The position numbers and the translations under genes are program-made. Below the pieces are notes generated by a model, which did no database searches, was not told the origin of the DNA, and saw only the letters and a list, made by a program, of their open reading frames with translations. DNA of 64,000 bases from Eledone cirrhosa (Eukaryota), in NCBI GenBank assembly GCA_964016885.1, contig OZ024746.1, positions 13,578,001-13,642,000 of the forward strand. The letters are read 5' to 3'. Positions 30,333 through 33,314 of this stretch are shown here, piece after piece. Position 1 is the stretch's first letter. Every line of letters starts with the position of its first letter.

Positions 30333-32751
30333 TGTGTGTGTGTGTGTGTGTGTGTGTGTGTGTGTGTGTGTGAAAAACACAGCTGTTCAACTTTCATATT
30401 TTTTGGTATTAGTTTATTTTTCTCCTAAATCCATAATACTATTTATGTGTCAAGACCTTAACAGCTCCATTTTCAGAATAAGAATGACAACAGTTTTGTT
30501 GTGTTGTTCATACACCTTGCTTGATCCCAGAGGAATTATGGAATACTAGTAAAATTTTTAATGTTGGATTTAAAAAATAGAAAGAAAAAACTATTCAACA
30601 ATTGTGTTCTGATAGGTTTTGAGAATAAATTTTTTATTATTCCCATGATCCTTTGCAATAACTGCAAAGTGTGTGAACAACATTCTATTACTTCCTTCCT
30701 CTCTGTCTGAAGATGGAGAGAATATGAAGGCTTTGACACAAGAAACAAGTAGTAAGGAAATATGAAAAATTCTTAAAGGGAATTTGTCAAAATTGAACGA
30801 AATCATGTTTTTAAGATAAGATTTAAAATAAAAGCTGTTCTTTGTGTGTGCGTGTGTATAAGTGTGCACAAATGTGTGTATGTATATCTGTATATAGGTA
30901 TATATTTGTATATAGTTGTATATCTGTATATAGGTATATATTTATATATATATGGATACATATATATGTATGCATCAGTATTTTTGTGTATGCAATTATG
31001 TATGTATATATTTATGTATATGCATGTGTGTGATATATATATATATACATATACATGAACATCTATGTATATTATATATATGTATATATTTTGTGTGTGT
31101 GTGTGTATATATATATATATACATACACACACACACACATACATATATATATGCACACACGCACACATACATACATGCATATACACATATTTCCACACAG
31201 GCTTTCTGACATAGCCATTTATTTATGACTTCTTTCTCTCCAAGTGTCAAAACATGGTCTTTTGATTTTTTTTTTTGTTTTGTTGCTTTTGCAATTCTGA
31301 TCAGGTTTGTGTGCCATTTTGATGCTGAAGAAGAATGAAGTAGCCTTTGCTCTTAGATTTCAGTCAGAAAGTAGAGAATGTGGTCTTATTAATTCCTTTC
31401 TTTTTTCCCTCCCCCTCTTATGTTTCAATTCTGTTGGTATTATTACCGATGGAAGGGTTAAAAATCATTTAATGTTTTGTTTTTCGTCATAATTAAAAGA
31501 AATCATTGGTCATAAACCTTTAAGTAGTTTAAATTTAGTTACTTATACATACCAGAGAGAGTAACTTGTCGTGTTTTATATGTAAAAAAAAAAAAGCCCT
31601 GATGTAATACTAATTTACTTACTGTCCTGACAAAACCACGACAACTTCTATAATTTATGGACTAACTGTTATTTCTTATGAAATGTTGAAGTGGCAAAAT
31701 GTTGGAAGAGCAACTTGTCAAAAGAGAGTATAAATTACTCATTTCTTTGGTCCTTTGGCATGAAGTTCTTTCACCATTATGTCACTTTGCCATTTCACAG
31801 AATATAACTAAAAAACTGACCAAGTGTAGGTACCCCTGCCAGAGATTCAATATCATTTGGTTAGTTGAGCTGATGTGGTACCTGTCTGCTGGTCAGTGGC
31901 AAAAATCTGTGGAGTGGCAAAGTGAGGGAATGGTGTCAAGACATCCTGCTGCTATTGTGAACATCACAGTGCACTGTATGAGCTTGTGTTTATATACCAT
32001 TTCGCCACTTTGCTTGTATTTATATAACTTTGCTTTGTTTCTTTTTTTTTTTTTTCTTTTTTTTTTTTTTTTTGCTATTCTCCAGAGAATGAGCAATCCC
32101 GGAACTGATTGATCCTCAGAAACAAGCTGGGAACATAAAAAAGTCTGACCAGCTAATCCTCCGGGGCTTTTTCTGGGATACTAGCTTTTGCAGGTCAGCT
32201 CTGATGGATATTTCACTTCCAAATAAGCTGATTTATTATCACATTTCAGTTCTAGGAAGAATTGTCCAGGTACTCCACAAATTTCTGATAATGCTACCTT
32301 TTTGTGAAGAAAAAGTTACTCATTTTCCCAAAAACTCATAACCACTTTGCCAACTCTAATTTGTGATAGGGGGTGGAATGGTCGGTGGTAAAACATGTGT
32401 ATATATATATATATATATATATATATATATATATATATATTTGTATGTATGTATATATATATATATATGTATATGTTTATGTATGTGTATATATATATAT
32501 CTATATATATATATATATATATATATGTTTGTATGTGTATATATATATATATATATATATATGTTTGTATATGTATGTGTGTATATATATATGTTTGTAT
32601 GTGCGTGTATATATATGTTTGTATATATGTGTGTGTATATATATATATATATATATATATATATATACATGTATATATATATATATATATATATATATAT
32701 ATATATATACATGTATATATATATATATATGTATATATATATATATAGATG

Positions 32752-32802
32752 AGATTCTACAGGACTAGAACTGTTTCATTCATTAGAAATCATCAGGAAT
32801 CT
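32752..32802 (-). ncRNA. Type I hammerhead ribozyme motif (antisense copy in the left arm)
   Basis: Exact reverse complement of 33182-33232. Confidence 0.8.
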
Positions 32803-33181
32803 GGGTATCAAAAAATAAATATGGTATTTATAGGTCTCTACAAGTGGTAGGAGAGGGTGGGGAGTGGGATGGGTGCAGGTCATTGGTTGATAGAGAAGGG
32901 AATTCATTAAAGGCTAATTCTACATAGCTATAGTTAATTTATATTTATTTATGTTTTTAGAGTAACAAAGGAATGGTATGCCATCCGGAACTTGTTTATA
33001 GATTTCTGTCTGCCTTTGTTACTCTAAAAACATAAATAAATATAAATTAACTATAGCTATGTAGAATTAGCCTTTAATGAATTCCCTTCTCTATCAACCA
33101 ATGACCTGCACCCATCCCACTCCCCACCCTCTCCTACCACTTGTAGAGACCTATAAATACCATATTTATTTTTTGATACCC

Positions 33182-33232
33182 AGATTCCTGATGATTTCTA
33201 ATGAATGAAACAGTTCTAGTCCTGTAGAATCT
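33182..33232 (+). ncRNA. Type I hammerhead ribozyme motif, sense to the ADAR2 pre-mRNA
   Basis: AGAUUC-CUGAUGA-U UUC UAAU GAA U-GAA-ACAG-UUCUAGUC-CUGU-A^-GAAUCU; predicted cleavage after 33226. Confidence 0.8.
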
Positions 33233-33314
33233 CATCTATATTAAAACTATTATACTCTGCTATGTATTGAGTACCTTACTTACTGTGGTTACCTCCGATT
33301 CAACCCGGAATAAC

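Follow-up and report, generated by a model that had tools for sequence, protein, structure and literature searches.

A perfect inverted repeat with 229-bp arms, holding a hammerhead ribozyme motif in its right arm, lies in an intron of the ADAR2 gene of Eledone cirrhosa, within the 64,000-nucleotide stretch of DNA analyzed here (the window; positions are counted from its first letter). We concluded that the feature is real and is a known type of insertion product of Penelope-like elements (PLEs); the family behind it belongs to the Hydra clade, was recently active, has intact copies, and is apparently undescribed. With a probability of about 87%, it is a 5′-truncated copy of such an element joined head to head to a shorter inverted copy of itself, likely a neutral by-product of insertion. 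Because the same transposon left the same shape at thousands of places in the genome, the hairpin is likely a neutral insertion and not the editing-controlled switch proposed in a preliminary description of this DNA, whose own caveat of possible neutrality is supported.

The hairpin and its hammerhead in the ADAR2 intron

The exon at 29098-29865 was 97% identical to O. vulgaris ADAR2 (P0002), and the next ADAR2 exon was found approximately 2.2 kb past the window end, followed by the deaminase exons on the same strand. Thus, the hairpin sits in an ADAR2 intron and is transcribed, as had been described, at 2,878 bp into the intron (the 2.9 kb after the dsRBD exon given previously). The exon layout of squid ADAR2 (PMC10278661) matches that seen here. 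The features of the locus are, by position:

29098-29865, + strand: ADAR2 exon with two dsRBDs (two Pfam dsrm matches; AG/GT boundaries read directly)
29866-64000 and on, + strand: ADAR2 intron of approximately 36.3 kb (tblastn on neighbouring stretches and PF02137 search)
32396-32748, unstranded: (TA)/(TG)n microsatellite, left flank of the insertion target (from sequence)
32743-32971, − strand: left arm, an inverted, shorter copy of the element 3′ end lacking the tail (229/229 pairs)
32752-32802, − strand, antisense to ADAR2: mirror hammerhead motif in the left arm (motif scan)
32827-32832, − strand: mirror of the TATAAA box
32968-32971, unstranded: 4-nt microhomology AAGG at the head-to-head junction
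32968-33316, + strand: 5′-truncated sense copy of the element 3′ end (its last ~350 bp, pLTR and tail), which spans 32972-33012 (loop) and 33013-33241 (right arm)
33152-33157, + strand: TATAAA box, predicted pLTR core promoter (from sequence)
33182-33187 with 33227-33232, + strand: hammerhead stem I, 6 bp
33188-33194, + strand: hammerhead core CUGAUGA
Between the CUGAUGA and GAAA core segments, + strand: hammerhead stem II, 3 bp, closed by a U10.1-U11.1 mismatch
33207-33210, + strand: hammerhead core GAAA
Between the GAAA and GUA core segments, + strand: hammerhead stem III, 4 bp, its 8-nt loop containing a CUAG palindrome
33224-33226, + strand: hammerhead core GUA; predicted cut at 33226/33227, with the 5′-OH at 33227
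33242-33316, + strand: element tail, carried by only one of the insertion's ends
33317-36300 (end approximate), unstranded: (TA)/(TG)n microsatellite, right flank of the insertion target

As had been claimed, the arms were perfect: all 229 positions paired (229/229) around a loop of 41 nt, and pairing outside the arms was at background level. The folded hairpin RNA reached −417.5 kcal/mol (z = −52.7 versus 100 shuffles). The left arm was 100% identical to the minus strand of a natural full copy of the element (locus L031), and the right-hand copy ran 75 bp beyond the arm into the tail, which was absent from the preliminary description.

The complete sense type I hammerhead reported at 33182-33232 of the right arm was found again, with all core bases and with stems of 6, 3, and 4 bp. 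The minimum-energy structure predicted for the isolated motif was not the hammerhead. Searching Rfam with 32740-33315 up to E = 10 returned no hammerhead family, its 12 rows all being of microRNA type and under the gathering score, and the best 150 of 417 rows of a wider Rfam scan held only microRNA-type matches under the gathering score and no hammerhead family. The 10.1-11.1 base pair, usually G-C in type I hammerheads, was here a U-U mismatch. This raised the suspicion of a decayed ribozyme, which was rejected because U10.1-U11.1 is the state of the whole family (14,607 matches in the genome). Furthermore, U10.1-U11.1 is a known variant, since natural hammerheads carrying it are described as compatible with activity (PMC3088659) and a U-U at the stem II base occurred in 5 of the 12 hammerhead rows seen of File S2 of PMC8557442 (Hydra clade).

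Several other motifs were observed. Sense to ADAR2, a donor-like GTATGC lies at 32976-32981 in the loop and a T-rich tract ending in CAG (33170-33183) just before stem I; they could mark an element intron or be cryptic splice signals. Another repeat, at approximately 7940-7985 on the minus strand, contributes a second, minimal hammerhead motif of type I; it also bears U10.1-U11.1, the palindrome CUAG replaces its stem III, and no match to the element ORF was found nearby. In the same gene, a short exon at 22205-22312 resembles the N terminus that is annotated for one O. vulgaris ADAR2 isoform (78% across 36 aa). Within the 94 kb examined, no counterpart of the optional extra dsRBD exon of O. 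vulgaris P0001 turned up with more than 60% identity.

A dust-masked self-comparison of the intron found no other perfect inverted repeat. The best was a pair at 51809-52131 and 58159-58482 (324 bp, 94% identical, arms 6 kb apart), and the same intron had many further inverted pairs at 70-90% identity as well as self-pairing TA tracts. These pairs are likely other double-stranded RNA in the ADAR2 pre-mRNA. In the preceding ADAR2 intron, a 22-bp tandem array at 24168-25399 with an internal inversion at about 25022-25075 could form duplexes of at least 50 bp. An older, degraded inverted fragment pair of the hairpin's own family (L042:675-800; 87-88% identity) was located approximately 19.3 kb before the window start, about 52 kb upstream of the hairpin and upstream of the known ADAR2 exons.

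A Hydra-clade parent element and its other hairpins

A search of the genome for the 341-bp stretch made up of the loop, the right arm, and the next 71 bp (32972-33312) gave 844 candidates, and among the 40 of these that were scored the stretch was identical over its full length at 16 other loci (17 with its own locus). The window sequence matched the 3′ end of full elements encoding RT and GIY-YIG, and the 341-bp stretch flanked an intact ORF on contigs C1164 and C23; this identity bears out the Penelope-like origin suggested earlier. The intact 713-aa ORF at L031:4552-6690 carried YRDD at residue 347 and YIG at 602, together with DKT (116), RWR (38, a variant of RWK), CNCLNKETC (566, CxCX5C), CDLC (666, CxxC), and CMH (694, CxH), and it had no GxK[FY] motif, as expected of the Hydra clade. 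The diagnostics of that clade are DKT, RWK, the CxCX5C linker, CxxC, CxH, absence of GxKF/Y, insertion into (TA)n, and hammerheads (PMC8557442), and the motif blocks of the ORF agreed by eye with the Hydra alignments printed in the same source. Pfam gave a weak, below-cut-off GIY-YIG match (E 0.067) and no RT family match, the ORF had no PDB match below E 0.13, and the listed ones among 1,402 homologues at E ≤ 1e-50 were unnamed. With Pfam support weak and the listed homologues unnamed, the clade was assigned from motifs and by-eye alignment comparison; placed in this way, the element is a young Hydra-clade PLE (EN+).

The pLTR arrangement at L031 comprised an inverted copy, a truncated copy, and a full copy 5,394 bp apart. 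Of 30 loci taken, 28 could be oriented, and 26 of them ran into TA repeats and 2 into the next tandem copy; the flanks in the window were likewise TA repeats. Element 3′ ends, classified for 55 ends at 60 loci, were of two kinds, long (24) and short (31): the long end is the end of the tail, and the short one lies 10-30 nt past the hammerhead cut site. The insertion in the window bears one of each, short on the left and long, with the tail, on the right, and 1,565 exact genomic copies stop at the same site as the short end of the left arm.

At L031:6800-9250, a (TA)/(TG) microsatellite of approximately 3 kb lies between ORF and pLTR and is copied along with the element, which may help to spread microsatellite through the genome. 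At L038:2393-4294, a 634-aa open frame adjoining a family copy has, by eye, the look of a Helitron-type PIF1 helicase.

The 54-nt ribozyme stretch had 1,393 exact copies in the genome, and the wider family had 14,903 hammerhead motif matches. Among the first 100 listed exact-ribozyme hits, which cover 167.6 Mb of contig C1, a minus-then-plus inversion occurred at 21 of 59 insertion sites, against 1 site with the opposite arrangement, and 9 inverted pairs were spaced at most 1 kb apart. We then fetched 14 inverted and 6 single-copy loci for arm analysis. By exact-motif search, 13 of the 14 inverted loci yielded arms, which were 75-612 bp long and free of mismatches in 9 cases; the remaining one, L049, gave no arm because it is without the exact motif. 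A near twin of the hairpin (L043) had perfect arms of 231 bp with a 25-nt loop, and L046 had perfect arms of 392 bp with a 39-nt loop. Mini-hairpins, in which two hammerheads abut head to head, gave 5,881 matches; because most were counted once per strand, the loci number about 2,900. Such mini-palindromes (L065, L086, L088, and others) were approximately 150-250 bp long and consisted of two hammerheads facing head to head within (TA)n tracts; any of them is potentially a perfect ADAR substrate, and they could be mistaken for MITEs. Family motifs were in excess on the forward strand by approximately 2,100-2,600 (about 2,250 for the 14,903 matches), which may reflect one large tandem array. A smaller, possibly retrozyme-like array, with no fewer than 11 copies spaced about 1.07 kb apart, was seen at C1:83,679,771-83,691,715.

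From these densities, the chance for a given 36-kb intron was estimated at about 0.2% for a short hairpin of the exact subfamily, at 1.4-4% for an inverted pair from the wider family, and at 5-12% for a family insertion of any kind. These figures weigh against the neutral reading in that they make the ADAR2 location an uncommon coincidence, though an unremarkable one for a site picked after the fact. An origin as a MITE or foldback DNA transposon was considered and rejected: the arms come from the 3′ end of an element that encodes an RT, and their length differs from locus to locus. An inverted 5′ copy and a one-sided, optional tail are typical PLE features (PMC8557442; PMC3846280; for the tail also PMC11167929), and Schistosoma has opposite-strand hammerhead pairs 100-700 bp apart (PMC4209133).

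Formation and age of the insertion

The hairpin likely formed as follows. The GIY-YIG nuclease of the element would cut both strands of the TA tract, and each cut strand would prime a cDNA, with synthesis beginning at the long (tailed) start site in one case and at the short start site in the other; both cDNAs would stop early and be joined at the 4-nt microhomology AAGG. The arms would then be perfect because both were copied from one young template. We infer this two-cDNA route from in vitro data on another clade, in which the PLE protein of anole, once purified, cuts and extends both strands of the target, and reverse transcription starts at two internal sites bounding the tail (PMC11167929). 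Self-priming on an antisense template is an alternative published route (PMC3846280). With 0 mismatches in 229 bp, and at a rate of 0.0036 per My (PMC13282606), the insertion has an upper age bound of approximately 1.8 My, gene conversion ignored, in keeping with the recent insertion suggested previously. The many junctions in this genome are a footprint of how PLEs form their inverted 5′ copies and of where their RNAs start.

Perfect palindromes can come from chimeric reads, and a fold-back read might have produced this one as an assembly artefact. None of the 15 listed pieces in the sequencing runs X1 and X4 spanned the hairpin-specific junction, although contigs cannot show absence and this comparison has little power. 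When four runs were aligned to the left arm and loop, X7 and X8 gave 0 reads, whereas X1 (2,907 contigs) and X4 (6) were found to contain the family, and the joint listed, 32971/33012, was ordinary element sequence. A search of sequencing runs with words of the junction stretch, which speaks neither way, found 1 of 4 sampled words in 6 of the 15 listed runs and half of the words in none. Against a chimera, the left arm stops at the short terminus shared by the 1,565 family copies, the tail is present in the right copy only, the flanks beyond the arm are not mirrored, and sister loci share the architecture but have different junctions. An artefact is thus extremely improbable.

The copies also point to a candidate RNA start at the first base of the ribozyme. 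The TATAAA box lies 30 nt before A33182, which stands in an initiator-like context, and thousands of copies, mini-hairpins included, are 5′ truncated at or within a few bases of A33182; in a set picked for a non-C base before the first ribozyme base, 26 of 30 loci stopped there. Given this spacing, context, and pile-up of 5′ ends, A33182 may be the capped transcription start of the element. Alternatively, fold-back through stem I, or reverse transcriptase stalling at the ribozyme, might set the 5′ ends. Matches with a non-C base before the first ribozyme base numbered 2,128, and among the first 100 of them that base was G in 79; it was also G in 21 of the 26 truncated loci (30 read). This G could be derived from a cap or be templated, since the antisense arm or the complementary strand of stem I can supply the same G. 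The titles and abstract openings of the literature searched contained no report of a cap-derived G at PLE junctions.

Expected consequences for ADAR2 and comparison with known systems

In the ADAR2 pre-mRNA, the arms would be expected to zip into the 229-bp duplex and keep the hammerhead unfolded; the duplex would likely be hyper-edited without specificity and then discarded with the intron. That the hairpin is probably edited promiscuously, like any long duplex, follows by analogy from the concentration of hyper-editing in repeat duplexes and its very high level in octopus (PMC5625713). The hairpin sequence itself is a young multicopy repeat.

The preliminary description had reasoned further that ADAR binding or hyper-editing could free the hammerhead from the duplex, leaving it able to fold and cleave ADAR2 pre-mRNA in a negative feedback. 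An intact core in the sense direction, a U10.1-U11.1 mismatch that is the family state and compatible with activity (PMC3088659), and the editing of squid ADAR2 messages (PMC10278661) are in its favor. The part of the proposal in which the left arm sequesters the ribozyme was supported by modelling, as forming the three ribozyme stems was computed to cost 2 kcal/mol in the isolated motif (~4% of the ensemble) versus 83 kcal/mol in the hairpin. Release by editing was then simulated under the best case for it, with the 16 adenosines of the ribozyme left as they are and random editing applied to the remaining adenosines of the arms (10 draws for each level, a single draw at 100%; nearest-neighbour models without proteins). 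At 50% editing, the predicted cost of the ribozyme remained 70-81 kcal/mol with inosine treated as G and 37-59 kcal/mol with inosine non-pairing; at 100% editing, it was still 65 and 19 kcal/mol, respectively. Over all simulations it ranged from 19 to 84 kcal/mol and so never fell below 19 kcal/mol. Moreover, an editing level that loosened the duplex would also strike the core adenosines; at 50% editing, all six were predicted to survive in 1.6% of molecules.

The ribozyme's own folding speaks against cutting as well. A dimer through loop III was computed at −12.8 kcal/mol versus −1.4 kcal/mol for the monomer stem III, and the intron has one sense copy only. A weak monomer and a strong dimer are in line with the weak, dimer-dependent cleavage of PLE hammerheads (PMC4209133): metazoan ones cleave weakly, as dimers (PMC4209133) or with help of the element protein (PMC11167929), and the anole PLE hammerhead was uncut without that protein, with 0 RNA-seq reads ending at its site (PMC11167929). 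Since thousands of other loci share the same lock and the link to ADAR2 is one of position only, the switch was not supported, and we give it almost no credence. Dimeric PLE hammerheads are reportedly the subject of Lunse et al. 2017. No natural editing-gated (ADAR-gated) hammerhead was found in the titles and abstract openings of the literature searched. If it were true, the switch would add a novel kind of ADAR feedback, and this in the group of animals that recodes its RNA most. Only slightly less implausible, and still very unlikely, is a broader recruitment of this transposon-made duplex as ADAR2 feedback that tunes the amount of intact mRNA, whether or not a helicase or the element protein also releases the hammerhead.

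An accidental, mild effect on ADAR2 that involves no ribozyme action is unlikely too, yet less far-fetched. The hairpin might recruit ADARs or double-stranded RNA-binding proteins, or its pLTR TATA/initiator or cryptic splice signals might act, and thereby alter ADAR2 splicing, level, or exon editing. It is the only perfect inverted repeat in the intron by dust-masked self-comparison; both arms have a TATA box and an initiator-like site, of the kind that Penelope pLTRs bear (PMC3846280), and one of these copies points back toward the dsRBD exon. However, the nearest exon is 2.9 kb away, the 36-kb intron contains many inverted repeats anyway, together with TA tracts able to pair with themselves, and the insertion is young (at most ~1.8 My). 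We keep to the reading of the hairpin as a likely neutral insertion by-product. As one more copy of a transposon end, this locus carries little weight. The family is the more useful result: it was recently active, has intact copies, and has left thousands of perfect or near-perfect hairpins, which makes it a plausible contributor to the high double-stranded RNA load and hyper-editing of octopus (PMC5625713).

Among the systems to which the locus can be compared are loops through which ADAR2 edits its own transcript. The known ones comprise the intronic splice-site editing of mammals and the S/G recoding of Drosophila; they are site specific and conserved and lie beside a splice site or codon. 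The hairpin shares with these loops, and with the edited squid ADAR2 messages (PMC10278661), the presence of double-stranded RNA in an ADAR2 transcript, but it differs from the loops in that its perfect duplex is young, derives from a repeat, lies far inside an intron, and has a candidate effect only. It also resembles the palindromic Harbinger repeats of Xenopus tropicalis and the Penelope repeats of anole (PMC5625713), which also self-fold into a duplex of about 200 bp without a partner copy; editing was measured there and is predicted here.

Compared with the description of the Hydra clade (Craig et al. 2021, PMC8557442), the parent element is alike in its single ORF of RT and C-terminal GIY-YIG, its DKT, RW(K/R), CxCX5C, CxxC, and CxH motifs, its (TA)n targeting, and its hammerhead near the 3′ end. 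It differs in having RWR in place of RWK, a tail of approximately 65-80 bp versus 30-40 bp, and a unit of 5.4 kb with an internal microsatellite of about 3 kb after the ORF, whereas units below 3 kb are reported as usual (PMC8557442). Hydra-1_Obim of Octopus bimaculoides is a different family: its hammerhead sequence differs, and about one-third of residues are identical, as judged by eye in one printed block. The insertion itself matches 5′-inverted, truncated PLE insertions bearing a one-sided tail (PMC8557442 Fig. 2; the Penelopes of Adineta vaga, PMC3846280; Schistosoma, PMC4209133). All have a head-to-head inverted pLTR, one side shorter than the other, a microhomology junction, and hammerheads on opposite strands, here 430 bp apart. 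Set against these insertions, the sole difference is the host location, an ADAR2 intron.
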